Origin: an uncultured Candidatus Cloacimonadota bacterium | GTDB lineage: Bacteria > Cloacimonadota > Cloacimonadia > JGIOTU-2 | Assembly: GCA_964398885.1 (NCBI GenBank) | Contig: CAYNOU010000002.1 | Location: 22,762-86,761 of the forward strand | Reading direction: 5' to 3' | Length of the DNA stretch: 64,000 nt | Part shown: piece after piece, positions 4,489 to 63,617 of the stretch | How the letters are laid out: each line of letters starts with the position of its first letter | How positions within the stretch are numbered: the stretch's first letter is position 1 | Translations under genes and position numbers: made by a program | The notes under the pieces: model-generated | The model's database searches: none | Seen by the model: only the letters and a program-made list of their open reading frames with translations | What the model was told of the DNA's origin: nothing

Positions 4489-5235
4489 TCATTTTGAACT
4501 AATATCCTCAAGAAGTAATTTCTTTTCTAATTCAATAATCTCTTTTATTCCCTTATCAGCTAATTTCAACATTTCCAATAATTGAGATTCTGAAAAAGTC
4601 TTATGCTCGCTTGCTCCTTGAATTTCAATATAATTGCCATCGTCATCTTTAACGATATTCATATCAACTTCAGCAATCAAATCTTCATCATAAGCTAGAT
4701 CAAGCATTATTTCACCATTAATAAGACCAACGCTAATTGCTCCCAAAAACTTATTTAATGGGAATTCACTTATCTTTTTTTCTTTTTTCATCTTTGTAAA
4801 AGCATCGTAAAGAGCGACAAAACATCCGTTTATTGCAGCAGTTCTCGTGCCTCCATCTGCTTGAATAACATCGCAATCAAGATATATAGTTCTATCTGGA
4901 AATAATGTAAGGTCAGTAACAGCACGAAGAGACCTACTAATCAATCGTTGTATTTCCTGACTTCTCCCTTTTATCCTTCCTTTGTATCTATCACGAATTA
5001 TCCTTTTTTTAGCGCTTCTGGGAAGCATATCATATTCAGCAGTTATCCAGCCTTGATTCTTGCCTTCTTCTCGTAAAAAATGTGGAAGTTTATATTCAAC
5101 AGATGCTGTACAAATAACCTTTGTATTACCCATTTCAATAAAAACAGAACCCTCTGGGTCCTGTAAATAGTTTCTTAAAATTTTGATGTTGCGAAGCTCA
5201 TCTGTCTTTCTTCCATCACTTCTCTGGTAACTCAT
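4489..5235 (-). CDS. rph: Ribonuclease PH.
   Basis: MSYQRSDGRKTDELRNIKILRNY...GNTKVICTAS...DCDVIQADGGTRTAAINGC aligns with RNase PH. The start is placed at the internal Met (M15 of the track ORF). Confidence 0.85.
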   Translation of the reverse strand: MSYQRSDGRKTDELRNIKILRNYLQDPEGSVFIEMGNTKVICTASVEYKLPHFLREEGKNQGWITAEYDMLPRSAKKRIIRDRYKGRIKGRSQEIQRLISRSLRAVTDLTLFPDRTIYLDCDVIQADGGTRTAAINGCFVALYDAFTKMKKEKKISEFPLNKFLGAISVGLINGEIMLDLAYDEDLIAEVDMNIVKDDDGNYIEIQGASEHKTFSESQLLEMLKLADKGIKEIIELEKKLLLEDISSK

Positions 5236-7454: not shown

Positions 7455-8119
7455 TATCCAACAATATTCCCATCAGTTAGTTCAATCACATTATTAGCCA
7501 TTTTGGCAATATTACTGTCGTGAGTTACAACAATAACAGTATTTCCATTTTTATACAAATAGTTAAATATATTCATAATACTGCTTCCAGAGGCGCTATC
7601 TAAGTTACCTGTAGGTTCATCTGCTAAAATAATTGATGGGTTATTTACTAAAGCCCTTGCGATTGCCGTTCTTTGCCGCTCTCCTCCAGACAATTCTGCA
7701 GGTTTGTGTTTAAGTCGTTTAAGTAAACCAACTTCATCAAGAACTTTTTCAGCCCTTTTTTTTCTTACTTTTTTGCTCATTCCAGCATAAAGTAAAGGCA
7801 GACATACATTTTCTAAAACATTCATATTAGGTAAGAGATTGAAAGTCTGAAATACAAAGCCTATCTTTTTGTTACGAATTTCTGCTAATTTATTATAACT
7901 TAATCCACTTACCTCTTTCTCATCCAAAAAATATTTCCCTCGGGTTGGTGTATCCAGGCAACCCAGGATATGCAATAAAGTAGATTTTCCGGAGCCGGAT
8001 GGCCCCATTATAGCAGTATAACTATTTTTTTCAATCTCAACAGATATACTATCTAAAGCAGTAACTTTTACTTTTCCCATTTGATATATTTTCTGCAAAT
8101 TTTCAATCTTGATAAGCAT
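7454..8119 (-). CDS. ABC transporter ATP-binding protein (MacB/LolD-like).
   Basis: Walker A GPSGSGKST, ABC signature LSGGERQR and Walker B ILADEP. Confidence 0.9.
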   Translation of the reverse strand: MLIKIENLQKIYQMGKVKVTALDSISVEIEKNSYTAIMGPSGSGKSTLLHILGCLDTPTRGKYFLDEKEVSGLSYNKLAEIRNKKIGFVFQTFNLLPNMNVLENVCLPLLYAGMSKKVRKKRAEKVLDEVGLLKRLKHKPAELSGGERQRTAIARALVNNPSIILADEPTGNLDSASGSSIMNIFNYLYKNGNTVIVVTHDSNIAKMANNVIELTDGNIVG

Positions 8120-16997: not shown

Positions 16998-19519
16998 CTA
17001 TCTTATTATAATCATCTTCTTTATTTCATTGTAACTCTCAGTTTTCAGTTGATAAAAGTAAATACCATTAGAAAGTGGACTACCATTTTCATCTTTTCCA
17101 TCCCAGATGATATTAGTCATTTGACATTGATTATTAGTCATTTGGTAAAGAGTTCTCACCAACTGACCTTTTATATTATAGATTTTTATATTTGATAATC
17201 TATGTAAACCTGGGGCTAAAAAGGAAATAGTAGTGGAAGTGCTAAAAGGATTAGGATAATTCTGATATAATAATATATCTGATGAAGATGTATAGAAATC
17301 ATCAATACCTTCCCCTTGCCATTCATAACAACCCATATCAACAATACTATTATATATTCTTGGATTTCCATCCAAATCAAATGGTGGTAGATTAAGACCT
17401 GTTGTATCAGGATTACCAGCATCAATACAGGGAGAATCATAATATAAATGATAATTGCTATTTAGTGTATCTACAAACTGCGGGTCAACAAACAAGTTAT
17501 AATAGATGTCGCATGAATCCTCATTTGCATTGACCGTAACAATTACTCCGAAATATGGGGGCACTCCAAAACCATTTATATCATTTTGCCAAAATAGATT
17601 ATATTCCAAAGTAGTAAGGATAGAATCCGCATAAATCCCATAACCATAATCTTCTCCATTATTACTAAAAACTATATTGTTTAAAATATTAGGAGAAGAT
17701 GAATTGGTTCTAATTCCATATCCATAACCATAACCATAACCACTATTACTAGAATGATACATACTCCCACCATCACCTTTCCCTGCATTATCACCTATCG
17801 TGTTATTATTTATAATTGGAGAAGAATTATTACAATTTATACCAAAGCCATATCCCTTACCCCCAGAACAATATCCCTCACCAATTCCACCATCTCCGCC
17901 ATTATCACTTATAATATTATCGTTAATACTTGGATAGGATGAATTAACACAGTATATTCCTGAACCATAACCATCTTCTGCAGGCCAACTTAAAGACTTA
18001 CCGGCATTACCACCATTTTTAATAATTGTATTATTACTAATATTCGGAGATGAATTATCACAATAGATTCCATATCCATTACCAGAACCACTTGATGGTG
18101 TCCTACTTTCACTACCATTACCATTATTATTGCTTATAATATTGAAACCATATCCTTTACTACCTAAAAACTGATAATAATAATCTCCACCTTCACCGCC
18201 ATTATTACCTATAATATTATTGTTAATATCTGGACAAGATGAATTTACACAGTATATTCCTGAGCCATAACCATCTCCAGGAGGATTTCCATCACCACCA
18301 TCACGACCATTATTAATTATTGTGTTATTGCTAATACTTGGAGAAGATGCATCACAATAAATCCCATAAGTTGCATATTCAACTTTAGAGTATGAGATTA
18401 AACTATTGGAAGAAGAATTCCCTTCAAATTTAATATGATTCCAATCGTTATGACGAGGTTCCTGTTCTCCTGAAGTAAAAAGAATAGAATCTGTTTCTGT
18501 TCCTTCCGCAAATAAGGTGCCATAAATAGTAAAAGAATAAAAACCCATAAACTTAATAGTAACACCATGTTCAATTATTAAAGTATCACTGAAATTAACA
18601 GAAATATCACCAACTACATTGTATGTTTCACCTGTTGACCAAATACCACTTTGTGAGCCTATTACTTCAAGGCTGAGTGTTACATTAGCAAGCGTTGTAT
18701 CTTCAACAAATTCAATTTCCTCAGGAATAGTATAAGGTTCCCAACCTTCATGAGAATAATGAACAGTATAAATTCCTGCTGAAAGCATAATAGCAAATGA
18801 GCCATCTTCATTTGTAAAGGTGCTGTCTGTTGTTGCTGAAGGATTTACACCAGAAAATAGAACTTTTGTTCCTAAATGATTGCTCATTCCTGCTAAATAG
18901 CAGAAGCCATCAACAGTAATACAATCATGATTTAGTGTAATTCCCGTTAATGTTGTATCTTCAAGAAGTTCAATTTCACCAGGAATAGTATAAGATTCCC
19001 AATACTTATGAGAATATTGCACAGTATAAGTTCCCGAAGAAATCTCTATAGCAAATGAGCCATCTTCATTTGTAAAGGTGCTGTCTGTAAAAGCAGGTGG
19101 AGATACTGCATTGAACAATACCTTTGTTCCTGAATGGTCACTCATTCCTGCTAAATAGCAGAAGCCATCAATGGTAACATCAACACTATAGAGGGTAATG
19201 TCTGGCAAAGTAGTATCTTCAAAAAATGCAATTTGACCAGGTATAGTATAGGATCCCCAACCTTCATGGGAATAATGTACAGTATAAATTCCTTCTGAAA
19301 GCACTATAGCAAATGAGCCATCTTCATTTGTAAAGGTGCTATCTGTAACAGCGGAAGGACTAACAGCATATAAAAGAGAACCTTGGTTCCCGAATGGTCG
19401 CTCATTCCTGCTAAATAGCAGAAGCCATCAACAGTAACTGACCGTGTTTGTGCCATTGCATTATTACCAATAATTAAAGGTAATAATAGCAAGAATGTTA
19501 GAATTACAATTTTTTTCAT
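16998..19519 (-). pseudogene. T9SS-sorted secreted protein with three CarboxypepD_reg-like repeats and beta-helix repeats. It is disrupted by a frameshift near 19370-19385, which separates the signal peptide.
   Basis: The 71-aa ORF (19304..19519) carries the signal peptide plus the first GFCYLAGMSDHSGTKVLF repeat. The 768-aa ORF continues in another frame with the same repeat twice more, NNxI beta-helix repeats, and a C-terminal NYPNPF...KKMIIIR sorting domain. The three repeats are near-identical at DNA level, so an assembly artifact is possible. Confidence 0.55.
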
Positions 19520-49232: not shown

Positions 49233-52175
49233 ATGAAAAAGGTATTTTTGTTAGTTTTTATACTATTCTTGTTTATTTTACCATTAACATTATTTTCAAT
49301 TGAAACTGGAAATATTGCAGGAAAAGTTTATATTCAAAAAACAGAAAAACCTCTTTTTCAGGCAAATGTTTATGTGGAAGATTTAAAAACAGGAATGCTA
49401 ACAAAGGAAGATGGTAGTTTCATAATGAAGAATATCCCAGTTGGTATTCATACTGTAACAGTAAGTTTTATGGGATATGAAAAGTTATCTGAAGAGGTTG
49501 AAGTAAAACCTAATTTGACGACAACTGTAATATTTTCATTAAGAATGAAACCTATAGGTATCGCAGGTATTACAGTTACTGCTACCCGTGCAATAAAAAG
49601 AGAAACTCCTATTGCCTTTACTGATATTGAGATGGCAGAGATTTCTGACAAATATACAACACAGGATATGCCGCAACTACTGGAAGATGTTCCGGGATTG
49701 TTCTCAAGTACAACAGGTATTGGAGATGCACAGATAACAATGCGTGGTTTTGAAGCTGATAAAATCCAGGTTCTCATAAATGGTATTCCAGTAAATGACC
49801 CAGAAAGTCAAAATGTATATTGGTCAAACTGGACAGGTCTTTCATCTAATGTAAAATCCGTTCAGGTGCAAAAAGGCTCAGGGTCTTCACTTTATGGTTC
49901 CGGAGCTTTCGGTGGTTCCTTAAATATAGAAACAATTGGATCTATCCCGAATAGAGAATTCACTTTTAGATCATCCTTTGGTGGATATTCCACAGAAGGT
50001 GATGTCGCTGATGGTAAAGGAGAGATTACAGATTATAATCCCATAAATTATAACGCACTTTTTCGATATAATTCCGGTAATCTTTATGGTGGAAAATTCA
50101 ATTATAATGTAATGTTGGAAAGAAAAGCTGGCGATTACTACCTTGCTGGCACAGACTATAATGGTTATTCTTTCGGATTAGAAACTCAAAACATAATTGG
50201 TCCGCATAAGATCAATCTTAGCTTCATTGGAGCCCCTCAATATCATAACCAGGTTTATTTCAAATCAGACAGAAATTTAATGGAAACTCTGGGTCGTGAG
50301 TATAACAGAAACAATCATGAATACCAGGAAAATTACTATTTCAAACCCCAGCTTTCACTCAGAGATGAATGGAAAATTTCTGATAAACAACTTCTGATGA
50401 CAAATGTTTTTGTAACAAAAGGAAATGGTGGAGGAAAATATCTCAGCCAGGATAATTTTGATGTGGAAACTGGAGATATCAGTTTCAAGGAAATTCATTC
50501 AGCAAACGAAGAAAACATTACTTTCGGCAGACATGCTCGGTATATTTATCAAATTACTGATTCAACTATTATATTTGATGGTTACAATCCTTCTGATTCG
50601 AATTATTATGGTTACCCAACTTATAACGGTAAGATAATCACCTCCGGGGCAGACTTTTTTTCATCACCGGATAGATACGATTACAGTTGGAGAAATAATA
50701 GCATAAGTGATCATTCCCAATTGGGATTGAACACATATTATCAACATGATATAAACCCTATGTTGAAACTGGTTGTTGGTGGAGAACTGCGAAGATGGGT
50801 TGCTGATCATTACAGAAAAACAGAGAACTTCAGACATTTTAATCCTGAATTTCCAGATAGTGTGGAAACTTATGATGAAATCCAAAGACAATATGATGAA
50901 ACATCTACTGTTACTAATCTATCAGGTTTTGCCCGTTTTAGCATAAAACCTATTAAAAACATAAATATCATGATTGATGGACAACTGGCAAGCTATAACT
51001 CAAAAGTAGAAGAAAATCCCATTGAAATTTATGATTTGGGAACTGGAGAACCTACCGGATATTATTTCTATTCAACCAAAGAAATTAAAGATGATGATGG
51101 AAATTTAAAATTTACGAAAGATGATTATAAGAAAACATATAACTTTTTCTCTCCGAAATTTGGTATAAACTATAATATTTCAAAATACTTTAATATAATG
51201 ACAAATTATTCAATTTCCTATAAAGAACCCAGAACAATGGAATGGTACAGTGGTTATGACGGACCCGATGGAAATCAGAGGTACACACAGAATCTCGTAG
51301 GTGAAGATGCTTCTGGTTATTATGAATATTCAGAAGAAACGTTTTATGGTGAACTGAAACCGGAGAAGATCAATACAATGGAATTTGGTGTTGGTTATGA
51401 TGGTATTATTTTTGATGTGAATGCTAATTATTATATTAGCGATTATATAGATAAGATTGAATATGTTGAAATTCCAATAACTAATTACTACTATGATGAG
51501 CAAAATGATTCAATATATACTGTCCAAAGGGATGAAAACCTTACATTAAATGCAGGTAAAGCACAGCACCAGGGTTTGGAATTAAGCACTTCAGTAAATT
51601 ATGCTGATTTCGATTTCTCTTCTTCATTAACATTGGCAAGGTTTCGTTGGACAAAGATGAATATAGAAGAGATTTTTGGCATCAGTGCAGAAGAAATGGA
51701 AGGAAAAGTTGTTCCTTTCTCTCCTGAGAAAATGGCAAATGGTTCTATTGGATATACCTTACAAGGGTTACCAATGGATGGAAGATTGCGTATTGGTTTC
51801 ACAGCTAAGTACTGGGATGACTATTATGCCAACTACACAAATGAATATGACTGCATTGAAGATTTAGATGGTGATTTTATTGCAGACACAACTTCAGTAA
51901 AAAGCACCAAGCTACCCCATTTCCTGGAATTTGGCAGCAACATCAAATATGCATTTAAGATTGGAAATAAAGATGCATTTATACGCCTGGATCTAAATAA
52001 TATTACTAATCGAAAGGATAACTATTCCTCAGCAAATGTAAATAAAGACTACAATCGTGGTTATTATAATGAAGAAGGTGAATTTGTAGATGATTACCTG
52101 ACTGATAACGATTATATGTATGTTACACCTGCCCCTTTGTTTAATATTTTTTTAACATTTGAAATTAAATTTTAA
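49233..52175 (+). CDS. TonB-dependent outer-membrane receptor with an N-terminal carboxypeptidase-regulatory-like domain.
   Basis: Signal peptide. CarboxypepD_reg-like segment (GKVYIQKTEKPL...NIPVGIHTVTVSFMGYE). Plug (ITVTATRAIKRETPIAFTDI). A 22-strand-size barrel ending with ...TFEIKF, an aromatic C-terminus. Confidence 0.8.
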   Translation: MKKVFLLVFILFLFILPLTLFSIETGNIAGKVYIQKTEKPLFQANVYVEDLKTGMLTKEDGSFIMKNIPVGIHTVTVSFMGYEKLSEEVEVKPNLTTTVIFSLRMKPIGIAGITVTATRAIKRETPIAFTDIEMAEISDKYTTQDMPQLLEDVPGLFSSTTGIGDAQITMRGFEADKIQVLINGIPVNDPESQNVYWSNWTGLSSNVKSVQVQKGSGSSLYGSGAFGGSLNIETIGSIPNREFTFRSSFGGYSTEGDVADGKGEITDYNPINYNALFRYNSGNLYGGKFNYNVMLERKAGDYYLAGTDYNGYSFGLETQNIIGPHKINLSFIGAPQYHNQVYFKSDRNLMETLGREYNRNNHEYQENYYFKPQLSLRDEWKISDKQLLMTNVFVTKGNGGGKYLSQDNFDVETGDISFKEIHSANEENITFGRHARYIYQITDSTIIFDGYNPSDSNYYGYPTYNGKIITSGADFFSSPDRYDYSWRNNSISDHSQLGLNTYYQHDINPMLKLVVGGELRRWVADHYRKTENFRHFNPEFPDSVETYDEIQRQYDETSTVTNLSGFARFSIKPIKNINIMIDGQLASYNSKVEENPIEIYDLGTGEPTGYYFYSTKEIKDDDGNLKFTKDDYKKTYNFFSPKFGINYNISKYFNIMTNYSISYKEPRTMEWYSGYDGPDGNQRYTQNLVGEDASGYYEYSEETFYGELKPEKINTMEFGVGYDGIIFDVNANYYISDYIDKIEYVEIPITNYYYDEQNDSIYTVQRDENLTLNAGKAQHQGLELSTSVNYADFDFSSSLTLARFRWTKMNIEEIFGISAEEMEGKVVPFSPEKMANGSIGYTLQGLPMDGRLRIGFTAKYWDDYYANYTNEYDCIEDLDGDFIADTTSVKSTKLPHFLEFGSNIKYAFKIGNKDAFIRLDLNNITNRKDNYSSANVNKDYNRGYYNEEGEFVDDYLTDNDYMYVTPAPLFNIFLTFEIKF

Positions 52176-52312: not shown

Positions 52313-53302
52313 CTACTTCATTAAAATCATTTTCTTGGCAGAATGATATTGTCCTGTGTTAATTAGGTAGTAATAAATGCCACTTGAAACAGAGTTTCCA
52401 TTCTCATCAGAGCCATCCCAAATAACAGTATATTCTTTTGCACTACAATTTCTATCTAAAAGTGTCCTGATTTTTTGACCACTTACATTATAAACAGCAA
52501 TAGTAACATGAGATGGTTTTTTTAGAGTGAAAGCAATTTTTGTTTCTGAATAGAATGGATTCGGAAAGTTTGCTTGAAATACCGTATTAGCATTAATAGC
52601 ATTATCATCAACTGAACCAGGTTCTATTAAGTCATCTGGAGTTCTGGGATTCAATCCATATTCATCATAGCTATAATCAACACAACCTCTTATTATTTCC
52701 CATACCATACCCACAGTAATTACAATAGGTGGAACAACCTCGTCTAAATAAAAGAATCCATCATCAATTTGAGCAATTCCAGTACCATCATGAACTAACC
52801 ATTGTCCATATAAGTCTGGTTCTTGGATAACAGTTACATCATTCAACTCAACCAAAACACCTTCATAGGGTTCTCCAACACCCTCTGGGGCAAGGTCAGC
52901 ACAAGTGATAGAAGTTGCATCAGGAATAGGATTACCTGAACTCAATAAGGTTATAGTAATGGGGTCACTATAACCAGAAATTTCAGTCATTCCATAATAT
53001 TCATCTACAGTTCCTGTTACTTCTATTTCATCACCAGGAACGAGTGTTGTATCACCTGCCATATAAACAAGGATACCTTTCCAAGCACCACCTTCTGGCA
53101 TTGAAATAAAAAAGTTATCCTTATAATGTGCCCATTCTATAGCAGTAACAATTCCTGAAACTGTAACTACCAGTCCATCATAAGTTGAAGGATATGTATT
53201 ATCACTACCAGGTTCAGTTGTGTATTGAACCTTATAAATCGTTAAGGCAGAAAGACTTCCGACAAATAAGAATAAAACCAAAGCCATAACACACTTTTTC
53301 AT
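52313..53302 (-). CDS. Secreted protein with a T9SS (Por) C-terminal sorting domain.
   Basis: Signal peptide MKKCVMALVLFLFVGSLSA. The C-terminus FPNPFYSETKIAF...GIYYYLINTGQYHSAKKMILMK matches the T9SS C-terminal sorting-domain consensus. Confidence 0.6.
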   Translation of the reverse strand: MKKCVMALVLFLFVGSLSALTIYKVQYTTEPGSDNTYPSTYDGLVVTVSGIVTAIEWAHYKDNFFISMPEGGAWKGILVYMAGDTTLVPGDEIEVTGTVDEYYGMTEISGYSDPITITLLSSGNPIPDATSITCADLAPEGVGEPYEGVLVELNDVTVIQEPDLYGQWLVHDGTGIAQIDDGFFYLDEVVPPIVITVGMVWEIIRGCVDYSYDEYGLNPRTPDDLIEPGSVDDNAINANTVFQANFPNPFYSETKIAFTLKKPSHVTIAVYNVSGQKIRTLLDRNCSAKEYTVIWDGSDENGNSVSSGIYYYLINTGQYHSAKKMILMK

Positions 53303-53544: not shown

Positions 53545-54597
53545 TTATCTCATAATCACCATTTTCTTAACTTGAGAATTTTCTACACCACCGAGTTTAT
53601 AAAAATAAATTCCATTCTGAACTGGTATTCCATTATCATCCAGTCCATTCCAACCAACTGAACCAGAGTCGTTTTCTATCAGTAAGTTGCTGAATCCTTT
53701 AACCTTTTGTCCTTTAACATTATAAATTACAATATCTGCTTTTTGGGCCTGTTTTCTATTTAATCTATAGGAAATCACTGTAGTTGAATTAAATGGGTTT
53801 GGATAGTTTTGAATTAGTTTATATTCAGTTGAACTGATTGAGGTTTCATCAACATCTACAAAGGGTTGAGTAAGATATGAAAGATAAGAAGACATCAGAG
53901 TTGCTTTTGTATTGGGTCTGGCACCATCAATCATTGCTCCCAGAAGTGATGATGTAAAAATTGTATGATATTGACCTTCTCCGTCATAACAAACTCCACG
54001 ACCTTTTTCGTCCTGAGAAATGAAAAAGAGTGTACCTTTATCAGCCCCAATCTCATCAACTGAATAATCGGAGTCAGAACCATATTGATAATTAAACTCG
54101 TAGTCTTCTGCAAATGTTCCATCTACCCCAAACAAACTCTGAACATTATAAGCATAACCATCACCATCGTAATTACAACCGAAATAGCTAAAAAGGTCAG
54201 TAAAATAATGATCAGAAGCAAAGTCTACGCCCTCAACATAAACAGCTTTACCAGAATTCAAAAAATCAACAAGCCTTTGTTGCTCGACCGAGCCAATTAC
54301 TCCAGGAGGAGTAGAACCTCACCCCAAACACCAATGACCAAGTGTAACAAATATCAGGTCGTAATTTGATAGGTCTGAAGGTAAGTAAGAAAAAGTGGCA
54401 TAACTTTCACCATTAGTCATCAAAGCCTGTTGTAAAGCATATTGACAACCAACATATCCTGCTCCTTCTGGATCATTTATATAAGAACCATTATCGTTAT
54501 CCCAAATTAAAATTTCTAGTCCTATGACAATTTGAGGTATAATAAATAACATTATTACGAAACACAAAATTATTGAATATTGTTTAATAATTTTCAT
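53545..54597 (-). pseudogene. T9SS-sorted secreted protein interrupted by a single in-frame TGA (54319-54321). It is either a pseudogene or sequencing error, or a selenocysteine codon in a CLG-U context.
   Basis: The 92-aa ORF has a signal peptide and the 238-aa ORF has the T9SS C-terminal sorting domain. They are in the same frame and separated only by TGA: ...GHWCLG*GSTPPGVIG... It is adjacent to the sel operon. Confidence 0.5.
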
Positions 54598-54857
54598 GAT
54601 ACACCTCTTTTTGATTTTAATATCAAAATAAAAAACAAATTAATAAAATAATTGTCAAGAAAAATCTAACGATAAGCTTTCTAATAAAAAAATTTAACCC
54701 CAAATTTCGCGGAGTAGACACAAATTCACCCTGTTAGATGTTTACTATCTAACGGGGGAACCACAAAGATAATAAGTAACTCAGTGAATTCTGTCACGCA
54801 ATGTAGGGATTCTCTATGGTTAATTTCGGTTTATAGCTCTATAAATTTACTATCACT

Positions 54858-57056
54858 TTATTTAACAAAAATTTTTCCAGTGCCTTTGGAAATTACTTTT
54901 CCAATTTTTGAAAATCCTTGAATTCCCTTTTTCTGAAATTTGTCTATTAATTCTATACATTCATCTTCTGGAATAGAAACTAACAAACCACCAGAAGTTT
55001 GTGCATCGGATAAAAGAACTTTCTGAACATAAGAAATGGAAGAACTCCATTCTACAATTGGCTCAACAAATTTCAAATTGGATAAAGTCCCTCCAGGAAT
55101 GACATTTCCAGCTGCAAATTCAACTGCGCCATTAAGGAGTTTTACCTTGTCAGCAAATACTTCAACATTCACATCACTCGCTTTAGTCATTTCAGATAAA
55201 TGCCCCAATAAACCAAAACCCGTCACATCTGTGCATCCATGAACTGTAAAATCATTTAATATTTGAGATGTGTAATTATTCAAAGTTTCCATTGTCTCAA
55301 CTAATTCTGTTTTTTGACTTTCAGAAAGTAATCCTCTTTTTAAAGCAGTTGATAATATTCCTGTTCCAATTGGTTTTGTAAGAAGAATTACATCACCAAG
55401 TAGCATACCTACATTTTTCCAAATTTTTTCTGGATGAACAAGACCAACTACAACCATACCATATTTCGGTTCTGTATCTTCAATAGAATGTCCACCAATA
55501 ACAGTTATTCCCGCCTCTTTAGCTTTCTCATTTGCACCTTGTAAAATCTTCTCTAACACACTCATAGGTAACCGATTCGTAGGAAATCCAACTATATTCA
55601 ATCCAAATAATGGTTTTGCACCCATTGCATAAATGTCACTTAAGGCATTTGCTGTAGCTATCATTCCAAAATCAAAAGGATTATCTACAATAGGAGTAAA
55701 GAAATCCACAGTAACAACAACCGCAGTATTATCATCAATTTTATAAACAGCAGCATCATCAGCAGTATTTGTACTTACTAAAATATTAGTATCAACTGGA
55801 ATCGGCAATTTTTGTAATATTGTTTCCAATATCTGTGGTTCAATCTTACAAGCACATCCCATTCCGTGAGTAAAATGAGTTAATTTGATTTCTTCTCTCA
55901 TATCAATTATAATATGATCTTTCTTTGCTTGAAATTTTTGCACAGTTTTAATAATAATTTCTGCTGCTTGCTCAATTTCTTCTTCAGTTGTAAATTTACC
56001 CGTAGAAAATCGAATAGTTCCCATTGAATAATCGATAGGCACATTCATAGCTTGCAAAACAGCCGAAACATCTATCCTGTCAGAATGGCACGCAGCACCA
56101 GCAGAAGCTGCAACTCCACTCATTTCAGAAAGAATAGTGTTCGCTTCGATTTTATAAAATCCTAAACTTAAAGTATTAGGCAAACCTTTTTCTGGATGCC
56201 CATTCAAACGAAAATCAAGATTTGATTCAGTGAGCTTTTCATGTAACAGGTCCCTCATCTTCTTCATATGTTTACAATTTTTATCCAGATCATTACCTGC
56301 AATTTCGCATGCTTTACCTAAGCCAACAATTTCCAATACATTTTCTGTCCCGGGACGCAAATTCTGCTCCTGATTTGCTCCATGTATTAGTTTCTGCAAT
56401 CTTGTTCCTCTTTTTATATAAAGAGCACCAACACCTTTGGGTGCATATAATTTATGACCTGCAATTGAAAGGAGATCTACTCCTAATTCTTTTACATCCA
56501 CTTTAATTTTGCCCATAGATTGAGCTGCATCTGTATGGAAGTAAACATTGTATTTTTTTGCAACTTTTGATATGTCTTCAATTGGCTGAATCGTTCCAAC
56601 CTCATTATTTGCATGCATAATTGTAATCAAAATAGTTTGAGGAGTAATAGCTTTTTCAACATCATCTGGGTTAACCAAACCATATTCATCTACAGGTAGA
56701 TATGAAATATTGAGTCCCTGTGATTCTAAATATTCACAAACTTCTATTACTGAAGGATGCTCAATTGAAGAGGTTATAATATGATTTCCCCTATCTTTAT
56801 GAGACAATGCAATCCCTTTGATTGCAAAATTATTGGATTCAGAACCACCACTTGTAAAGATAATCTCATCAGAATGAGCATTAATCATATTTGCAACTTG
56901 TTTGCGTGCATTTTCAACAGCTTTTTTTGTTTGAATTCCATACCAGTGCATACTTGAAGGATTACCAAAATGATTATCTAAAAAAGGTCTCATAGCTTGT
57001 GCTACTTCAGGTGCAATTGGAGTTGTTGCATTATAATCTAAATATATTGGTTTCAT
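54858..57056 (-). CDS. selD: Fusion protein: NifS-like cysteine desulfurase / selenocysteine lyase (N-terminal) fused to selenide, water dikinase SelD (C-terminal).
   Basis: N-terminal half: LDYNATTP...SSMHWYG...FTSGGSESNN, a class V aminotransferase. C-terminal half: THGMGCACKIEP (the SelD GCxCK motif, Cys-type), then a PurM-like fold. 732 aa. Confidence 0.8.
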   Translation of the reverse strand: MKPIYLDYNATTPIAPEVAQAMRPFLDNHFGNPSSMHWYGIQTKKAVENARKQVANMINAHSDEIIFTSGGSESNNFAIKGIALSHKDRGNHIITSSIEHPSVIEVCEYLESQGLNISYLPVDEYGLVNPDDVEKAITPQTILITIMHANNEVGTIQPIEDISKVAKKYNVYFHTDAAQSMGKIKVDVKELGVDLLSIAGHKLYAPKGVGALYIKRGTRLQKLIHGANQEQNLRPGTENVLEIVGLGKACEIAGNDLDKNCKHMKKMRDLLHEKLTESNLDFRLNGHPEKGLPNTLSLGFYKIEANTILSEMSGVAASAGAACHSDRIDVSAVLQAMNVPIDYSMGTIRFSTGKFTTEEEIEQAAEIIIKTVQKFQAKKDHIIIDMREEIKLTHFTHGMGCACKIEPQILETILQKLPIPVDTNILVSTNTADDAAVYKIDDNTAVVVTVDFFTPIVDNPFDFGMIATANALSDIYAMGAKPLFGLNIVGFPTNRLPMSVLEKILQGANEKAKEAGITVIGGHSIEDTEPKYGMVVVGLVHPEKIWKNVGMLLGDVILLTKPIGTGILSTALKRGLLSESQKTELVETMETLNNYTSQILNDFTVHGCTDVTGFGLLGHLSEMTKASDVNVEVFADKVKLLNGAVEFAAGNVIPGGTLSNLKFVEPIVEWSSSISYVQKVLLSDAQTSGGLLVSIPEDECIELIDKFQKKGIQGFSKIGKVISKGTGKIFVK

Positions 57057-57058
57057 AA

Positions 57059-59002
57059 CTATCTTCCAATTTCTTTATACCCTTTTTCAGTAATAACTCT
57101 ATAATCCCCTTTTCGGATGGTAATACCTTCGCTATCAAATTGGGTAAGCATCAAAAGACATATTTTACGATTCCCTTCAATCAAATCGCGGAACTCAGAA
57201 ATTTTTATACCCTGAGGATTATCATTAAGATATTTTAATAGTTTTTCTCTTGCGCCATTAATAACAGAGGAATGAATAAAATTCCCATCAATATTACACA
57301 ACTTCCCTTTATTTATTAGCAATCCAATAATTTGTTTTATCTTCTTATCATTATAACCTTTTTTCTCAGCAATGGAGCATAAATCAGATAAGAGTGGGGT
57401 TTTCATCCCTGAATTTTTAAAGTAATTTTCCACAAATGCTATTTGCTTCTCATCATCTTTAGATATATTTAATTTATGGGTTTTCAAAGCCCATGTATTT
57501 TGGATTTGTTTTATTTTTCCTTCATCTTCAAGCTTTTTCATAATAATTTGAATCCATTTGTCATTTGATGAATCGTTTTTCATTCCAAACAAACCGACTA
57601 ATTCCTTAAAAGTTTTTCCCGTTTCTAAAAACGGATTTTTTTTATGATATTCTTTCAGATTTTCAAGAATCCTTTTTTCAGTTCTGCTTTTCTCTTCTTT
57701 TTTAAAAAGAAATATATTCTTATCTGATGATAGAATAGAAATATCTTCAGGTATAGACTTAAAAATTATCTCTCTAATTTTTTCTTCTGGTAAATTCAGT
57801 TTTTTTGCAATATATTCATAATTTAACGGATACAAACTTTTTCTAACTTCTGTAGCAATTAATTCAGATATATCACCAGAAGCAATTTTATAGAGCTTGT
57901 TAATTACATTTTCATTTCTTCTACGATGATGAAGTGGATGTGCATCAAGCACAATTCCCCCACCAAGAGTTAATTCGGACGAGGTATTTCGTAGAACAAA
58001 TTTATCACCGTAAAAAGCAATACAAGGAGAATCAAGATGTATCTGAACAATACCACTTTGTCTCGGTTTCAAAATTTCTTTATCAATAAGATGTATTTTT
58101 GCTTGTGCCTGCAATGTACCCAAAAGAAATATTGCTTGTGACCATCTGCCAAAACTGCTATTGTGATTAAACAAAGTAATTTTTGCATCAATCATATCTG
58201 TTGTCTGTAAAGGCATATTAGAGATAAGCATTCCTCTTGAAAAATTTTCTTTATTCAATCCTATCAGATTCAAAGAAGCTCTATCTCCAGCAGTTATTTC
58301 CTCAACCTGGGTTCCATGACGCTCCATTCTACGAATTCTCAACTTTTTTGCATTAGGCAGAAGATAAACTTTTTCATTATCTCTTAACTTACCACTAATA
58401 ACAGAGCCGTTTACAACGGTTCCAAAGCCTTTTACTGTAAATATCCTATCAATATACATTCTAAAAACATCACCAGTTGGTCGTTGTGGAATTTCTTCAC
58501 TAATTTTTACTAAAAGCTGCTTTAATTCCTCAATACCATATCCTGTTTTTGATGAAACTTTTATAATTGGAAATTCTTCAAGAAAAGTTCCTTTTATAAA
58601 ATCAGCAACTTCTTGTTCTACAATTTTGAGAAGCTCTTCATCTACAAGGTCAATCTTTGTTAAAGCTACAAATCCTTTTTTTATCCCAAGAATCTTCATA
58701 ACATTAAGATGCTCAACTGTTTGTGGCATAATTCCACTATCTGCAGCAATAACGAGCATAACAAAATCAATTCCGCTTGCTCCTGCAACCATAGTATTCA
58801 CAAAATCTTTATGACCAGGAACATCTATTATTCCAATACTCTGTCCATTTGGTAGCTCAATATGTGCGAAACCAAGATTAATGGTTATTCCTCTAATCTT
58901 TTCTTCTTTGTGAGTATCACATTCAATATTTGTTAAAGCTTTTATTAAAGCAGTTTTCCCATGGTCAATATGGCCTGCTGTTCCCATTATTAAATGTTTC
59001 AT
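57059..59002 (-). CDS. selB: Selenocysteine-specific translation elongation factor SelB.
   Basis: N-terminal G-domain MGTAGHIDHGKTALIKALT...DVPGHKDF...TKIDL. 647 aa with a C-terminal winged-helix extension. It lies between selA and selD. Confidence 0.85.
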   Translation of the reverse strand: MKHLIMGTAGHIDHGKTALIKALTNIECDTHKEEKIRGITINLGFAHIELPNGQSIGIIDVPGHKDFVNTMVAGASGIDFVMLVIAADSGIMPQTVEHLNVMKILGIKKGFVALTKIDLVDEELLKIVEQEVADFIKGTFLEEFPIIKVSSKTGYGIEELKQLLVKISEEIPQRPTGDVFRMYIDRIFTVKGFGTVVNGSVISGKLRDNEKVYLLPNAKKLRIRRMERHGTQVEEITAGDRASLNLIGLNKENFSRGMLISNMPLQTTDMIDAKITLFNHNSSFGRWSQAIFLLGTLQAQAKIHLIDKEILKPRQSGIVQIHLDSPCIAFYGDKFVLRNTSSELTLGGGIVLDAHPLHHRRRNENVINKLYKIASGDISELIATEVRKSLYPLNYEYIAKKLNLPEEKIREIIFKSIPEDISILSSDKNIFLFKKEEKSRTEKRILENLKEYHKKNPFLETGKTFKELVGLFGMKNDSSNDKWIQIIMKKLEDEGKIKQIQNTWALKTHKLNISKDDEKQIAFVENYFKNSGMKTPLLSDLCSIAEKKGYNDKKIKQIIGLLINKGKLCNIDGNFIHSSVINGAREKLLKYLNDNPQGIKISEFRDLIEGNRKICLLMLTQFDSEGITIRKGDYRVITEKGYKEIGR

Positions 59003-59188: not shown

Positions 59189-60577
59189 TCAATGTAAAAG
59201 GCATTTTTGTATTTCTTGTGATACATAATCTATATCTTCTTCATTAATTGTTAAAACATCAAAATGGATATTTCCTTCTCTGAGAATTCCAAGTATTGGC
59301 CTTTCTAAATGCAACAATTGTTTAAACAACTTTTCTGCAAAATTTTTCGTATTATCCTTGTTAATCAGCATTACTGAATAGCTATCTAATTTTAGACGAG
59401 GAAGGGTTCCTCCGCCACAATGTGCAATACTCTCTACTATTTCAGATTGTATATGAAATTTTGCTAACTCATTTTGTAATTTTTTTGCAATATTATAAAG
59501 CTCGGATTTACTTTTTTTTAGCATCCTATAAACAGGTATTTTTGTAAAAACATCTTCATCTTTAATATAATATCGCAACACTGTGGATAAAGCGGCAATA
59601 GTCATTTTACCCACTCGGAGTGCTCGCATAAGTGGAGCTTTTGAAAGTTTAGATATTAATTCCTTTTTACCTGCGATTATCCCTGCTTGAGGACCACCAA
59701 GTATTTTATCACAACTAAAAGTAACTAAATCTGTTCCGTAGTTTAGACTGGAAACAGCATCAGGTTCATTCCCAAAATGTAAATCTTTTTGTTTTCTTAT
59801 AAGTCCGGAGCCCAAATCATACATTAAAATCAGATTATATTTTCTTGCAAGCTTTGATAATTCTTTTAGTTCTACCTCTTCTGTAAAGCCTTCTATATAG
59901 TAATTTGATTTATGAACTTTTAAAATGATTCTTGTATCACCAGTAATTGCATTTTCATAATCTGATATTCTGGTTCTGTTTGTTGTGCCAACTTCAACCA
60001 TTTTTGCACCGCTTGCCTTCATTATATCAGGAATCCTGAAAGAACCACCAATTTCTATCAATTCTCCACGAGATATAATTGCTTCTTTATTTTCAGCAAA
60101 AGTTTTTAAACAGAGCAGGACTCCAGCGGCATTATTATTAACCACAACTGCATCTTCTGCTTTTGTAACAAATTTAATTAATTCTGAAATGTGTTTATTT
60201 CTCTGCCCTCTTTTACCTTTATCTAAATCAAATTCTAAATTAGAATATCCAAGTATGATTGGTTCTAATTCTTTTAGAACATCTTTACCAAGTGGAGCTC
60301 TTCCAAGATTTGTATGAAGTATAATTCCAGTTGCATTGACCATTGGTTTAAGTGATTTTTTGGTTATAGATTGGATAATAACTTTAATATCCTCAATAAT
60401 TTGGTTTAAGTTTTTTGCAGGCTTTGCTTTTAAAACATTTTTTCTATACTCATCCAAAATTTGTCTAATTGAATATGTAATCAAATCATTTCCAAATTTG
60501 TTTTTCAATTTCATTATTTCAGGATGATTTAATAATTTATCCACGCCGGGAATCTTTTTAAGTTCTTCTTTACACAT
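59189..60577 (-). CDS. selA: L-seryl-tRNA(Sec) selenium transferase (selenocysteine synthase).
   Basis: MCKEELKKIPGVDKLL...NATGIILHTNLGRAPL...NNNAAGVLL...RGELIEIGGSFRIPDIM...VGTTNRT are SelA hallmarks. The start is placed at ATG 60575-60577, because the track GTG lies inside a repeat. Confidence 0.85.
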   Translation of the reverse strand: MCKEELKKIPGVDKLLNHPEIMKLKNKFGNDLITYSIRQILDEYRKNVLKAKPAKNLNQIIEDIKVIIQSITKKSLKPMVNATGIILHTNLGRAPLGKDVLKELEPIILGYSNLEFDLDKGKRGQRNKHISELIKFVTKAEDAVVVNNNAAGVLLCLKTFAENKEAIISRGELIEIGGSFRIPDIMKASGAKMVEVGTTNRTRISDYENAITGDTRIILKVHKSNYYIEGFTEEVELKELSKLARKYNLILMYDLGSGLIRKQKDLHFGNEPDAVSSLNYGTDLVTFSCDKILGGPQAGIIAGKKELISKLSKAPLMRALRVGKMTIAALSTVLRYYIKDEDVFTKIPVYRMLKKSKSELYNIAKKLQNELAKFHIQSEIVESIAHCGGGTLPRLKLDSYSVMLINKDNTKNFAEKLFKQLLHLERPILGILREGNIHFDVLTINEEDIDYVSQEIQKCLLH

Positions 60578-60587
60578 AGTTAATCCT

Positions 60588-60648
60588 AAAAAATTTGCCA
60601 CAGATTTAGACCAATCAAAAAAATGATTACCTTTATTTCTGTGGCAAA
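60588..60648 (-). terminator. Hairpin (11-bp stem TTTGCCACAGA/TCTGTGGCAAA, about 32-nt loop) plus a U6 run between tRNA-Sec and the selA RBS. Terminator-like or a processing element.
   Basis: The minus strand reads tttgccacagaaataaaggtaatcatttttttgattggtctaaatctgtggcaaatttttt aggattaact ATG. It uses the family-B TTGCCACAGA motif as an inverted repeat. Confidence 0.4.
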
Positions 60649-60662
60649 CAATAAAATTATAA

Positions 60663-60757
60663 AGCCGAGAGGGCAGGAATCGAACCTGCCACAGACGGTT
60701 TTATCCGCCCACTACTGATTTTGAAGACCAGTTGGAACACCAGTTCCATCCTCTCAA
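60663..60757 (-). tRNA. selC: tRNA-Sec (selC), anticodon UCA.
   Basis: Minus-strand fold: 8-bp acceptor (TTGAGAGG/CCTCTCGG), 6-bp D-stem TGGAAC/GTTCCA with the 4-nt loop TGGT, 6-bp anticodon stem with loop CTTCAAA (UCA at 34-36), a long variable arm, and a 5-bp T-stem GCAGG/CCTGC with loop TTCGATT. About 94-95 nt. CCA is not encoded. Confidence 0.75.
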
Positions 60758-60795: not shown

Positions 60796-62730
60796 TTATC
60801 GCATTATCACCATTTTTCTTACCTGAGATTTTTCAGAATTAGAAATTTTATAGAAATATACACCATTGCTAACTGCATTTCCATTTGTATCTGTTCCATC
60901 CCAGACAATCTCACCATAATTTCCTTCAAAAGGAAGGTTATTAAATTCTTTTACAATATCACCTTTAATATTATAAATAATGATTTTTGATTTTCTACTC
61001 GGCTTTATGTTATAAGAAATATTTGTCTCGGAGTTAAATGGATTTGGAAAATTCTGCAGCAAGCCTGAATTGTTATTTATCGCAGAATCAACACTATGTG
61101 GTTGATCAAAATATAAAGCACCCATATCTGCAACAGTTCCATCAGGGTCTGGTGGAGAAGCTGGATCTCCTGCGTCAATACACGGAGAACCTTCTAATAA
61201 ACTCCAGGATGCTTCAAGACCATTGTAACTCGTTCCACTTCCTGCTGTTGGATTCTCAAACATTGGGTCTTCATTGATATTTCCAGTTCCACTATAACCA
61301 CCTGATATACAAGTATAGGTTACATAAACAGTACTACCAAATAGATTGAATACATCTAAGTCGTCAATTAGGATACAATTGTTAACTGTTGCAGAAGAAG
61401 ATGCAAACCACATTGCTCCATAACCATAGGTAGATTCATTATTTGCTATTGTGTTGTTAATCATAGTCGGGTTTGATGAGTTTTTTAAACTAATTGCACC
61501 AGCGAAACCTGCAGTATTATTAACGATTATATTATGAGAAATCAGAGGATTTGCATTATCACAAACAATTCCTGCACAAAGAATTGAACTTGTATTATTG
61601 GCTATTAGGTTTTTATAAATATACACACTATCTAAACCAATTACATTAATTGCTGCGCCTTTCTGGGTTGTAGTTAAATTCTCATAAATAGTGTTTTCAA
61701 TAATATCAACTTTTGAATTTTCAATATCTACTGCACAATAAGTGGCATTAGTTATTTCACAATTCTGAATAAGATTGTCTTCCATAGTATTAAAGAATTG
61801 AATACCTTTCCAACTATCATTTGATGTGAAAATTATAGGACCTTTTCCAGAAGCATCAGCAACTATTTTTCCTTCAACTTTTATCTTGCTATTATTATTT
61901 GTAATTATTTGAACATCAGGTTCAATAGTAAGTTCACAGCCATCTGGAATTGATACATCATCAGTGATAGTATAAGGGCTAAAAGCTGTATTCCAGACAC
62001 CAGCAACAGTTCCCGAAATATTATTACTATTAGTAACAGTGATGTAGTCCTCTTGAGTAATACTTGCACTATCAGCACCACTCCAAACAGTTAGAGATAC
62101 ATCATAAGATCCAACATCAGTATAAAGGAAAAATGGATTTTCTTCGTTACTGTCAATTAAGCCATCACCATCAAGATCCCAAGCCCATGTATCTGCACTA
62201 CCCGCTGTACTATGGAATTGAACTCCTAATGAAGGAGGTCCTGTTTGTATACTTGCATCAAATCCTGCCATTAATCCTAAAGATGCAATCGCATCATCTA
62301 AATATGTTGAGAAATTTACATTATTCTCACCATAATATAGTTGATATTCACCACCAATAACTGCAAAGAATGGTACATAGCCATTACCATAATCCCAATA
62401 TAAAGAGCTAATATCAGAAGAATGATAAAATGTACAATTATAAGGTGGAATACTCCAATCATTTTCAGATAGGAAGTAAACATGTCCACCGGGGTTATAT
62501 GTTTGCCACATAGCTTCTAATTGCGGCGCCGCCGCAACACAGCCACCTCAACTATAACCTCCCCAGAAAAAGACTACCGCTTTTTCTGCGTTGATCAATT
62601 CATATATTGAATGCGGTGCTCCAGTATTATCAGTCCAACTAAAATCATCTACAACATCGCCTACTTGGTATACTGCAAACAATGAACTTGCAAATACCAA
62701 AAATGCGAAAAGGGTAATTGCTTTTTTCAT
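60796..62730 (-). CDS. Candidate selenoprotein. Order of domains: signal peptide, thioredoxin/TlpA-like redoxin domain with a U-x-x-C motif (Sec at the in-frame TGA 62548-62550), PKD-like domain, beta-helix repeats, T9SS C-terminal sorting domain.
   Basis: The signal-peptide ORF and the 571-aa ORF are in the same frame and separated only by TGA: ...EKAVVFFWGGYS-U-GGCVAAAPQLEAMWQTY..., a redoxin pattern with FW..xCxxC. A SECIS-like hairpin starts 10 nt downstream. sel genes lie immediately downstream. The C-terminus FPNPFNSE...KMVIMR is a T9SS sorting domain. Confidence 0.6.
62521..62537 (-). promoter_or_regulatory. Putative bacterial SECIS element: GC-rich hairpin 10 nt 3' of the in-frame UGA.
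   Basis: Plus strand ttgcggcgccgccgcaa (8-bp inverted repeat). The mRNA reads UGA GGUGGCUGUG UUGCGGCGGCGCCGCAA. It is a conspicuous 100% GC core in a roughly 30% GC genome. Confidence 0.45.
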
Positions 62731-62876
62731 CTTATACTCCTTTAATTTTATTTAATTCCATAAAATGAATTTTACACATCTTATGAAATCATTTTTTACT
62801 ATATTAGTCTTTTAAATAAAATTTTGTCAAAAAATATTATAATTTTTTTAAATTTATTTATGATTGATTTTGCAAT

Positions 62877-63617
62877 TTATCTCAAAAGTAGCATTTTTTT
62901 TGTTTCTTGATAACTCCCAACTTTTAATGAATAGAAATATATTCCGTTTGCAAGTTTTCTACCATTTGCATTTGTGCCATCCCATACAACTTCTTTAATT
63001 TTTTCCCGAGTATAATTGGGATTAATTTTTAATTCTTTTATTAGTTGCCCTTTCAGGTTGAATATTTCAACAATTGGGTCTTTATGTGTGGGTTTATCAA
63101 GATAAAATGAAATAGTTGTTGAAAAAGAAAAAGGATTGGGATAATTTTGTGATAAATTGCAAGTTAAGGGAATATTGACATCATCTATACTATTTTCTGT
63201 TGCATATGAAAAATTTATTGTATCTGGCTCACTAATTGAAGGGGACTCAAAGATGAACTGAAAGGTAAAACTTCCAGTAGAACTAACTGTTATGGTAAAA
63301 TCAAGATTAAGTGTATCACCACTTACAAATTCAAATTGCCATGGCCATCCGAGCATATGGCATACTCCTGAACCATGAAGTTCATGACACCAGATCATAG
63401 ACCAATCTGATGGTATATTTTGAGCTTCAACATTTACTGTGAATGTATCTGTTTGACCATTATTGATAACATAAAAAAAATCTGATGTAAAAATATAAGT
63501 GCTATCTGTATAAGGAGGTCCCACAACATTTGGATTGAATGGAATGTTAACTTCTAAGTCAGCAATGAGCAGATTTGCACAAAATAAGATTATTGATAAT
63601 GTTAATATTTTTTTCAT
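62877..63617 (-). CDS. Secreted protein with a T9SS C-terminal sorting domain.
   Basis: Signal peptide MKKILTLSIILFCANLLIA. C-terminus NYPNPFSFSTTISF...GIYFYSLKVGSYQETKKMLLLR. Confidence 0.6.
   Translation of the reverse strand: MKKILTLSIILFCANLLIADLEVNIPFNPNVVGPPYTDSTYIFTSDFFYVINNGQTDTFTVNVEAQNIPSDWSMIWCHELHGSGVCHMLGWPWQFEFVSGDTLNLDFTITVSSTGSFTFQFIFESPSISEPDTINFSYATENSIDDVNIPLTCNLSQNYPNPFSFSTTISFYLDKPTHKDPIVEIFNLKGQLIKELKINPNYTREKIKEVVWDGTNANGRKLANGIYFYSLKVGSYQETKKMLLLR

Follow-up and report, generated by a model that had tools for sequence, protein, structure and literature searches.

Does the TGA at 62550..62548 end a short gene, or does it encode selenocysteine (Sec) inside a longer one? 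The DNA in question, called the window below, is a stretch of 64,000 nucleotides from an uncultured Candidatus Cloacimonadota bacterium (assembly GCA_964398885.1, contig CAYNOU010000002.1, positions 22,762 to 86,761), and positions are those of this stretch. On its minus strand, a reading frame runs from ATG 62730 to TAA 60798..60796, with TGA 62550..62548 as the lone in-frame stop. Bacterial selenoproteins are mostly regarded as cytoplasmic or periplasmic redox enzymes. In this study, we found that the locus 62730..60796 is likely a single gene for a 644-residue secreted selenoprotein, in which a Sec-containing redoxin is mounted on a stalk that ends in a type IX secretion (T9SS) tail. Taken by itself, its identity as a genuine selenoprotein gene is very likely. 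The evidence comprises a conserved UGA, a covarying hairpin, Cys homologues, a recognisable fold and domain order, and the Sec machinery encoded next to the gene.

A reading frame with one internal UGA

The predicted gene (60796..62730, minus strand) has 644 codons plus the stop codon, with Sec as codon 61, and around this codon the read-through product reads ...EKAVVFFWGGYS-U-GGCVAAAPQLEAMWQTY.... A sequence-only reading of the window had noticed a signal-peptide open reading frame (ORF) and a 571-aa ORF that share one frame and are parted by the TGA only, which is seen directly in the sequence. The 60-aa ORF (62548..62730) and the 571-aa ORF (60796..62511) are the two halves of a single frame. 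The 571-aa ORF begins at 62511 because this is the first ATG; the frame is already open from the TGA onward. The 12 open codons between the TGA and this ATG read GGCVAAAPQLEA and contain the second active-site Cys, which is otherwise counted as intergenic. Re-initiation at ATG 62511 was ruled out, since the Met is absent from several orthologues (L001, L006, L007, L008 and L026 in our numbering) and the codons between TGA and ATG, including that for the second active-site Cys, are conserved. TGA is the ordinary terminator of 10 of the 44 long ORFs in the window and is therefore a normal stop codon in this organism. For this reason, and because the homologous residue is Cys, an alternative genetic code with TGA as a sense codon genome-wide was also ruled out. 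A Shine-Dalgarno sequence, GGAG (62737..62740, minus strand), was read directly in the sequence 6 nt 5' of ATG 62730. Further upstream, a consensus scan weakly indicated a promoter-like TTGACA-18-TAATAT (62801..62830, minus strand; 10/12 matches), such sites being no more numerous there than shuffling would lead one to expect.

Conservation of the TGA was examined in homologues gathered by locus-level scans of genomes and metagenomes and with the full-length read-through query. Apart from the window, 14 distinct sequences have TGA as the homologous codon; they come from independent assemblies and reach down to 27% identity (L001, L002, L006, L007, L008, L009, the second copy in L024, L026, L029, L030, L033, L039, L040 and L041; L027 and L028 duplicate L006 and L007 in the compared stretch). 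Among the titled genome records, L006-L008 are Candidatus Cloacimonadota metagenome-assembled genomes (MAGs) and L009 is a Bacteroidales MAG; metagenome contigs are also present. In all these relatives the frame is open and protein conservation extends from the TGA in both directions; the feature is more than a chance one. A genuine stop with two separate genes, which the sequence-only reading had named as the outcome that would speak against a selenoprotein, was thus not what the orthologues have.

The UGA aligns with the first Cys of the CxxC motif in Cys-containing homologues. The codon (62548..62550, minus strand) is TGA in the 14 relatives and TGC or TGT in the Cys homologues, as expected if UGA replaces the first Cys to give UxxC, and the concern that the TGA might lie away from the CxxC position is removed by the same alignment. 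The Cys homologues include a Gemmatimonadetes protein (P0003/L010, CGPC), T9SS-tailed Flavobacteriia proteins of about 290 aa with C[GV]PC (L011-L023), and three further sequences (L031, L032 and L035). A Cys-containing orthologue of the same architecture had been proposed as something to look for, and such orthologues were found at full length with CGGC (P0005 and L024/L025). P0005 has 650 aa and is 77% identical across 100% of the read-through query. In L024 (about 4000-8100) and L025 (about 4000-8050), a Cys copy (CGGC) is followed in tandem by a paralogous Sec copy (UGAC), both with the full architecture. These tandem pairs amount to a natural experiment on Sec-to-Cys conversion, and the hairpin described below has decayed in the Cys copy. 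Position-specific exchange of Sec and Cys is a recognised selenoprotein signature (PMC13188914). A continuous frame with an in-frame UGA, conservation on both flanks and alignment of the UGA with Cys in homologues are marks of a selenoprotein gene, and all are present here.

The public gene calls for the locus comprise the 571-aa remainder only (P0004). Two 89-aa proteins from related loci (P0001 and P0002) end exactly in ...FFWGGLG and ...FFWGGYS. Among the best 120 clusters for the read-through query, the Cys form alone begins before the U position and is full length, and at least 42 predicted proteins or public clusters start inside the head, at query residues 65-161, as expected of gene callers that meet a stop at residue 61. 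The public records P0004 and P0124-P0126, together with at least 42 related clusters, are N-terminally truncated. Their source names, where given, are 'T9SS type A sorting domain-containing', 'PKD repeat' and 'right-handed parallel beta-helix repeat-containing', with no selenoprotein annotation. A homologue search with the head alone yielded only 3 hits because gene callers split the Sec forms.

The sequence-only reading had proposed a search for a selenocysteine insertion sequence (SECIS) downstream of the TGA. A SECIS-like hairpin, GUUGCGGC-GGC-GCCGCAAU (62520..62538, minus strand), starts 9 nt past the UGA and has 8 bp and a GGC loop, with a UGA-to-loop distance of 17 nt and a minimum free energy (MFE) of -11.0 kcal/mol. 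The model of the bacterial SECIS (bSECIS), as quoted in PMC13188914, calls for a loop of 3-9 nt, an upper stem of 4-16 bp, a G within the first two positions of the loop, a UGA-loop distance of 16-37 nt and an MFE of at most -7.5 kcal/mol. Compared with these quoted values, the hairpin lies within all of the limits. An Rfam scan matched the tRNA-Sec only and no SECIS family, as expected for a hairpin of 19 nt.

Covariation was scored on a gap-free alignment of 14 distinct Sec forms, namely the window and 13 relatives; L009, with a one-base shift of its hairpin, was excluded. Pairing of the helix reaches 85.7% of cells, compared with 28-52% in registers shifted by 1-3 nt. Both sides have changed in 5 of the 8 pairs (19 cells), and none of 500 shuffles matched the observed covariation score. 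In five sequences the closing pair C-G is replaced by A-U. The substitution on the 5' side is non-synonymous, GCG for Ala becoming GAG for Glu; that on the 3' side, from GCG to GCU, is synonymous. Such a combination is hard to account for by protein constraint alone. The codons of the hairpin are rare in the window, where GCG makes up 5.9% of Ala codons and CCG 8.1% of Pro codons; from this codon usage, the probability of GCG GCG GCG CCG given AAAP is 1.7e-5. The hairpin is also the sole run of G and C of at least 10 bases in the 64-kb window, whose GC content is 31.8%. The protein sequence of the head hardly differs between the L024 Cys paralogue and the Sec form L001, and in the paralogue's hairpin three substitutions fall in its 5' arm and loop. 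Its hairpin folds at -2.8 kcal/mol, compared with -8.5 kcal/mol in L001, and its loop is AGC, with the loop G lost.

A complete Sec-decoding cluster had been claimed just downstream of the gene, and its members matched their profiles above the cutoffs. The tRNA-Sec (anticodon UCA; 60664..60757, minus strand) lies 38 nt past the stop codon and was detected by ARAGORN and by Rfam RF01852 (58.3 bits against a cutoff of 47). It is followed on the minus strand by selA (59189..60601; TIGR00474, 551.7 against 267.9 bits), selB (57059..59002; TIGR00475, 362.3 against 242.25 bits, full length) and a fusion of a NifS-like cysteine desulfurase with SelD (54858..57056). In the fusion, residues 391-698 match TIGR00476 (374.7 against 125 bits) and residues 4-376 are of NifS/IscS type; this N-terminal part may be a selenocysteine lyase. 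With GMGCACK in its active-site region, the SelD is of the Cys form and not the Sec form. All of selA, selB, selC (tRNA-Sec) and selD are therefore encoded within 6 kb downstream.

The adjacency of the gene and tRNA-Sec was also found in three other genomes (L006, L007/L028 and L026) and not in L008. Only short gaps separate the gene, tRNA-Sec, selA, selB and nifS-selD, which share one strand, and no terminator-like site was found on that strand between the stop codon of the gene and selA; a terminator-like site lies 3' of selD (54715..54697). From this arrangement, co-transcription of the gene with the sel cluster is possible. A 'Cloacimonetes-type' tRNA-Sec with a 7+5 acceptor/T-stem has been described (PMC5330540). 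ARAGORN draws the tRNA-Sec of the window as 8+5, with G-U wobbles as the two outermost acceptor pairs.

Domain order of the product and its predicted export

A signal peptide, MKKAITLFAFLVFASSLFA, was predicted by inspection at residues 1-19 (62674..62730, minus strand), with cleavage before VYQVGD. It is of a type I-like form, with a KK n-region, a hydrophobic core, small residues at -3 and -1 and no lipobox Cys, and orthologues have the same pattern on inspection. The protein thus begins, as a T9SS cargo would, with a predicted signal peptide for the general secretory pathway.

The mature N-terminal region (62275..62673, minus strand; active site U61-G-G-C64) is very probably a TlpA-like head, in agreement with the assignment to TlpA/redoxin-type proteins in the sequence-only reading. 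With U written as C, the mature head passes the curated cutoff of PF00578 marginally (26.2 bits against 26) and scores 22 bits with PF08534. Across the family, PF00578 or PF08534 matched 10 of 11 members (best E = 2.3e-14), and PF00578 scored 86.8, 71.4 and 41.5 bits in the distant Sec relatives L033, L030 and L039. In sequence matches from the PDB, the motif falls on CxxC in a thiol-disulfide isomerase (3hcz) and on TxxC in a peroxiredoxin, which puts U at the first, attacking position. The AlphaFold 2 model of a Cys orthologue head (mean predicted local distance difference test, pLDDT, 86.6; predicted template modelling score 0.82) has the order beta-beta-alpha-beta-[CxxC]-alpha-beta-alpha-beta-beta-alpha, with the first Cys at the N-terminus of helix 1 (residues 43-59). 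The columns U/C43, C46 and P102 are invariant in the family, and P102 would be a cis-Pro. The orthologue model is therefore a thioredoxin fold in which the N-terminus of helix 1 bears the redox motif, and the Pro is conserved across the family. Foldseek against the PDB first matched this model to TlpA/ResA-type oxidoreductases, among them Bacteroides 4ka0 (E = 1e-8), 4nmu (template modelling score, TM, 0.72), ResA, StoA, pneumococcal Etrx1/2 and DsbE, and Bcp-type peroxiredoxins were matched as well. The fold spans the UGA, so that neither half-ORF is a complete domain.

The sequence-only reading had also described PKD-like and beta-helix domains and a Por/T9SS C-terminal domain (CTD) behind the head. 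PKD and CTD passed Pfam or NCBIfam cutoffs, and the beta-helix was recovered by modelling. The PKD domain (62035..62259, minus strand; residues 158-232) scored 27.8 bits with PF18911 (cutoff 27) and 24.2 bits with PF00801 (cutoff 23.5). In a full-length orthologue model its pLDDT is about 82-95, and Foldseek pointed to collagenase and S-layer PKD domains. The stalk is formed mainly by a right-handed parallel beta-helix (61111..62019, minus strand; roughly residues 238-540), which the orthologue model gives as regular short strands with pLDDT of about 82-97. Its Foldseek matches to pectate and alginate lyase folds are weak; PF13229 is precomputed on homologues, and a para_beta_helix repeat scored 17.4 bits, below the cutoff. 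This full-length model was used for PKD, beta-helix and CTD only, as the head (residues 1-157) has pLDDT below 50 in it because few alignment rows cover the N-terminus. A disordered linker connects the beta-helix to a T9SS type A sorting domain (60799..61050, minus strand; residues 561-642), which passes the curated cutoffs of PF18962 (30 bits against 27) and TIGR04183 (30.1 against 23).

The stalk and tail are also found with other heads. In Cloacimonadota, the PKD/beta-helix/CTD stalk bears M6 metalloprotease heads in proteins of about 1005 aa (P0041, P0055, P0057, P0060, P0067 and others) and an Omp28-like head, which suggests modular surface display of different catalytic heads. Distant Sec-redoxins (L039, L040, L041, L033 and L030, with UPSC, UASC or UGAC; PF00578 41-87 bits) have a hairpin at the same position. 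Of these, L039 (complete, 369 aa) is an independent Sec-redoxin with a TSP3 repeat, a dockerin and a terminal T9SS CTD; a stretch of L033 resembles a dockerin and, at 22.5 bits, narrowly misses the Dockerin_1 cutoff of 22.9. Judged from the predicted domains, Sec-redoxin heads are independently associated with modules for extracellular anchoring in L039 and L033. At least five proteins of the window have a T9SS CTD. Apart from the candidates described in this text, CTD proteins lie at 16998-19304, 52313-53302 and 62877-63617, two of the three flanking the sel cluster, and a TonB-dependent receptor (49233-52175) adjoins the cluster.

We propose the following mechanism. SelB with Sec-tRNA(Sec) would bind the hairpin at 62538..62520, and UGA 62550..62548 would be recoded as Sec by factors encoded directly downstream. 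The product would consist, in order, of a cleavable signal peptide, a TlpA/ResA-type head with the attacking Sec in U-G-G-C, a PKD domain, a long beta-helix, a flexible linker and the T9SS CTD. It would cross the inner membrane via the general secretory pathway and the outer membrane via T9SS, and would then be displayed on the surface or released, as T9SS biology and the precedent of HBP35 suggest. We consider T9SS export rather probable. The head may carry out thiol-disulfide (selenylsulfide) exchange on extracellular substrates. Sec is the stronger nucleophile, is more easily re-reduced and resists over-oxidation. With these properties and its low pKa, it would be well suited to an enzyme that works in sulfidic, anoxic habitats without a dedicated extracellular reductase. 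The most speculative step is that the head might open disulfides of extracellular proteins ahead of proteolysis, which is made plausible by the M6 metalloprotease heads on the same stalk. A role in selenium or sulfur acquisition, suggested solely by the linkage to sel genes, is likewise speculative.

Several points weigh against the reading of the locus as a gene for a secreted selenoprotein. Sec insertion at codon 61 is a prediction at the sequence level, made from the established SelB/bSECIS mechanism. In L006 and L008 the pairing of the hairpin is limited to a 4-bp GC core. A single-sequence fold of the 66-nt region was not significant against dinucleotide shuffles (z = -0.75), a value that says little, as the local GC richness is retained in the shuffles; covariation and codon rarity were used instead. 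The PF00578 match is only marginal and falls to 25.9 bits, below the cutoff of 26, when the signal peptide is included. The AlphaFold 2 head model is that of a Cys orthologue, 67-85% identical, and not of the window protein, and its alignment was made from window fragments and database hits. As for function, the reductant is conjectural, with a possible reliance on ambient thiols or sulfide in anoxic habitats, and any specific substrate is speculative and named with low confidence. Finally, no T9SS machinery gene was found within the 64-kb window, and T9SS is only 'possibly present' in Cloacimonadota (PMC11285876).

The last two points would fit a genuine Sec-redoxin that stays in the periplasm or outer membrane, where it might serve TlpA/ResA-like envelope protein maturation, its FlgD_ig/Por_Secre_tail-like CTD being no working T9SS signal in Cloacimonadota. 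This is consistent with T9SS outside Bacteroidota being only inferred (PMC11285876), with best structural relatives that are periplasmic or membrane-anchored oxidoreductases, and with a CTD score just above the cutoff (30 against 27). However, the CTD passes two curated models and recurs in the other window proteins counted above, the same stalk and CTD carry M6 metalloproteases, which are typical secreted cargo, and the dockerin and TSP3 modules of distant Sec-redoxins are extracellular anchoring domains. We consider retention in the envelope unlikely.

That the TGA is a real stop, leaving a 60-residue peptide and a separate 571-residue T9SS protein, or that the locus is a pseudogene or an assembly error, is extremely unlikely. 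Gene callers do split the locus in this way (P0004, P0001 and P0002), and an ATG stands 12 codons past the TGA. Against this, the thioredoxin fold extends across the TGA, the TGA and the frame are kept in the 14 relatives from independent assemblies, and the 12 codons up to the ATG are conserved together with the second active-site Cys, although the Met itself is missing from the five orthologues named above. The covarying hairpin past the TGA and the full-length Cys orthologue also argue for one gene. Read-through of the UGA might instead insert, always or at times, a residue other than Sec, namely Cys or Trp, by near-cognate decoding or under selenium limitation. A member of a second, neighbouring family (P0148) has Trp at the U position, so that a TGA-to-TGG change is tolerated in related contexts. 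This alternative is nevertheless very unlikely, given the dedicated tRNA-Sec(UCA), selA, selB and selD immediately downstream, a SelB-type hairpin at fixed spacing that is lost in the Cys paralogue, and the Sec/Cys exchange at this one position, which is a recognised mark of selenoproteins (PMC13188914). These results favour a selenoprotein gene whose product is secreted.

Neighbouring candidate selenoproteins

A second T9SS-tailed candidate selenoprotein (53545..54596, minus strand; TGA 54321..54319) lies directly downstream of nifS-selD. Its features are the motif ...VTLGHWCLG-U-GSTPPG..., a signal peptide and a PF18962 (Por_Secre_tail) match of 31.2 bits. Apart from the pair at 54321, all other TGA-bridged ORF pairs in the window are trivial adjacencies or antisense frames. 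The TGA of this candidate is conserved in L042, L043 and L044, and other members of the C-x-x-U family have Cys at the U position (P0144, CTGC; P0153, CIGC; P0263, CVGC; P0146, CLSC), with Trp in P0148. No Pfam or NCBIfam family covers the head, and no hairpin clearly fitting the bSECIS model was found for the candidate. The family has 383 representative relatives (E <= 0.001), most of them predicted proteins that start right after the U position. On these grounds, it may be an undescribed selenoprotein family.

A third head, ...VGEVFT...-U-[GP]-Y-C-P-x-A-R..., has the same PKD/beta-helix/CTD stalk and a TGA at the first Cys position. It was found in L007 (3579-5726), in two copies in L045 (2863-5085 and 5209 onward) and in L046 (2839-5073), with a GC-rich hairpin about 19 nt downstream of the TGA. 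Full-length Cys forms exist (P0104 and P0026), and their NF045500 score of 64 bits, below the 200-bit cutoff, suggests a distant relationship to this NCBIfam family (GOS_C). The C-x-Y-C-P motif of this head resembles the active site of HBP35. Genes for the third head directly adjoin orthologues of the studied gene; in L045, three such selenoprotein genes stand in tandem.

Together with the distant Sec-redoxins above, this three-head pattern suggests a surface-directed selenoprotein set that has been missed by present annotation. We tentatively propose that Cloacimonadota and certain other FCB-group bacteria keep an extracellular, T9SS-delivered selenoprotein set with at least three Sec heads, namely TlpA-like U-x-x-C, Omp28/GOS_C-like U-G-Y-C-P and C-x-x-U, although we would put the chance of this at slightly less than even. 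The first two heads are on the common PKD/beta-helix/CTD stalk, and the C-x-x-U head is followed directly by the T9SS CTD. The genes would be in tandem and often linked to sel genes, their products would bring Sec redox catalysis to or beyond the outer membrane in anoxic habitats, and they would be major clients of the Sec machinery. Cloacimonadota are common in anaerobic digesters and sediments. Selenoproteome censuses of this phylum are likely undercounts, as the family and many members of the two neighbouring families are deposited in truncated form. If the reading of the locus is correct, a set of cell-surface selenoproteins in Cloacimonadota has been overlooked, being currently cut in two by public annotation. 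A conserved Sec-redoxin exported as T9SS cargo would put selenium chemistry outside the cell and would raise the question of how an extracellular selenylsulfide is re-reduced. With the gene directly upstream of tRNA-Sec, selA and selB, the locus also provides a compact testable module from an uncultured phylum, consisting of the UGA, the 19-nt hairpin and the cognate SelB and tRNA.

Comparison with known systems

Sec-containing thioredoxin-like oxidoreductases had been called an established bacterial class, and the literature bears this out. Predicted UxxC Sec-redoxins include Prx-like 1 and 3, a 'Prx-like thiol:disulfide oxidoreductase' (PF00578), a 'Redoxin family protein' (PF08534) and a UGC-containing TlpA family (Zhang and Gladyshev; PMC2398784, Table 2; PMC13188914). 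The studied protein is like these in its PF00578/PF08534 thioredoxin-fold head, its Sec at the first position of UxxC, its abundant Cys homologues and a bSECIS-type hairpin just past the UGA. In contrast, the known proteins are described as single-domain forms or simple fusions, and in no case are a PKD/beta-helix stalk, a T9SS CTD or an occurrence in Cloacimonadota mentioned. None of the NCBIfam selenoprotein models matches the head of the studied protein.

The head resembles TlpA, ResA, StoA and Etrx (TM 0.62-0.72) in its N-terminal beta-hairpin, the CxxC that starts helix 1, the conserved, probably cis, Pro and, as predicted here, extracytoplasmic action. Those proteins are Cys-based, are membrane-anchored or lipoproteins, and are re-reduced via CcdA/DsbD, whereas the studied protein has Sec, no membrane anchor and a secretion stalk, with an identity to them of only 14-24%. 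The closest likeness in architecture is to HBP35 of Porphyromonas gingivalis, a T9SS cargo whose thioredoxin activity and surface anchoring by A-LPS were demonstrated experimentally (PMC2907840). Both have a signal peptide, an N-terminal thioredoxin-type CxxC domain and a T9SS CTD, read here from the sequence. However, HBP35 uses Cys, binds haem and has no PKD/beta-helix stalk. No PDB sequence hit to the HBP35 chain was found at E <= 1, and HBP35 is absent among the 50 Foldseek matches listed. The likeness is therefore one of architecture only, and membership of the HBP35 family was rejected.

The Omp28-related selenoprotein (NF045500, 'hypothetical protein GOS_C' in PMC13188914) is likewise a UxxC family of the cell envelope, and its U-G-Y-C-P relatives occur on the same stalk beside orthologues of the studied gene. 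The head family differs, and the studied protein, which had no match to NF045500 at E <= 1, was not assigned to it. The sequence-only reading had regarded a cell-surface or extracellular location as unusual for selenoproteins, which is only partly right. Omp28-related/GOS_C, an MtrB/PioB-type outer-membrane protein, ExtKL and DsbA-like proteins are already predicted selenoproteins of the periplasm, outer membrane or wider envelope (PMC13188914), and an extracytoplasmic location by itself is therefore no novelty.

In the searchable literature and NCBIfam, we found no Sec-redoxin as T9SS cargo, no Cloacimonadota selenoproteins of this type and no linkage of this kind to a sel operon. No paper there connected selenoproteins to type IX secretion or to genes of this type from Cloacimonas, Cloacamonas or Cloacimonetes, and the sole relevant mention of Cloacimonetes concerned tRNA-Sec structure. 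The chemistry class of the protein, a UxxC Sec-redoxin, is thus already known. What is new is the T9SS surface-display architecture, the lineage, the prevalence, the systematic mis-annotation and the linkage to the sel genes.

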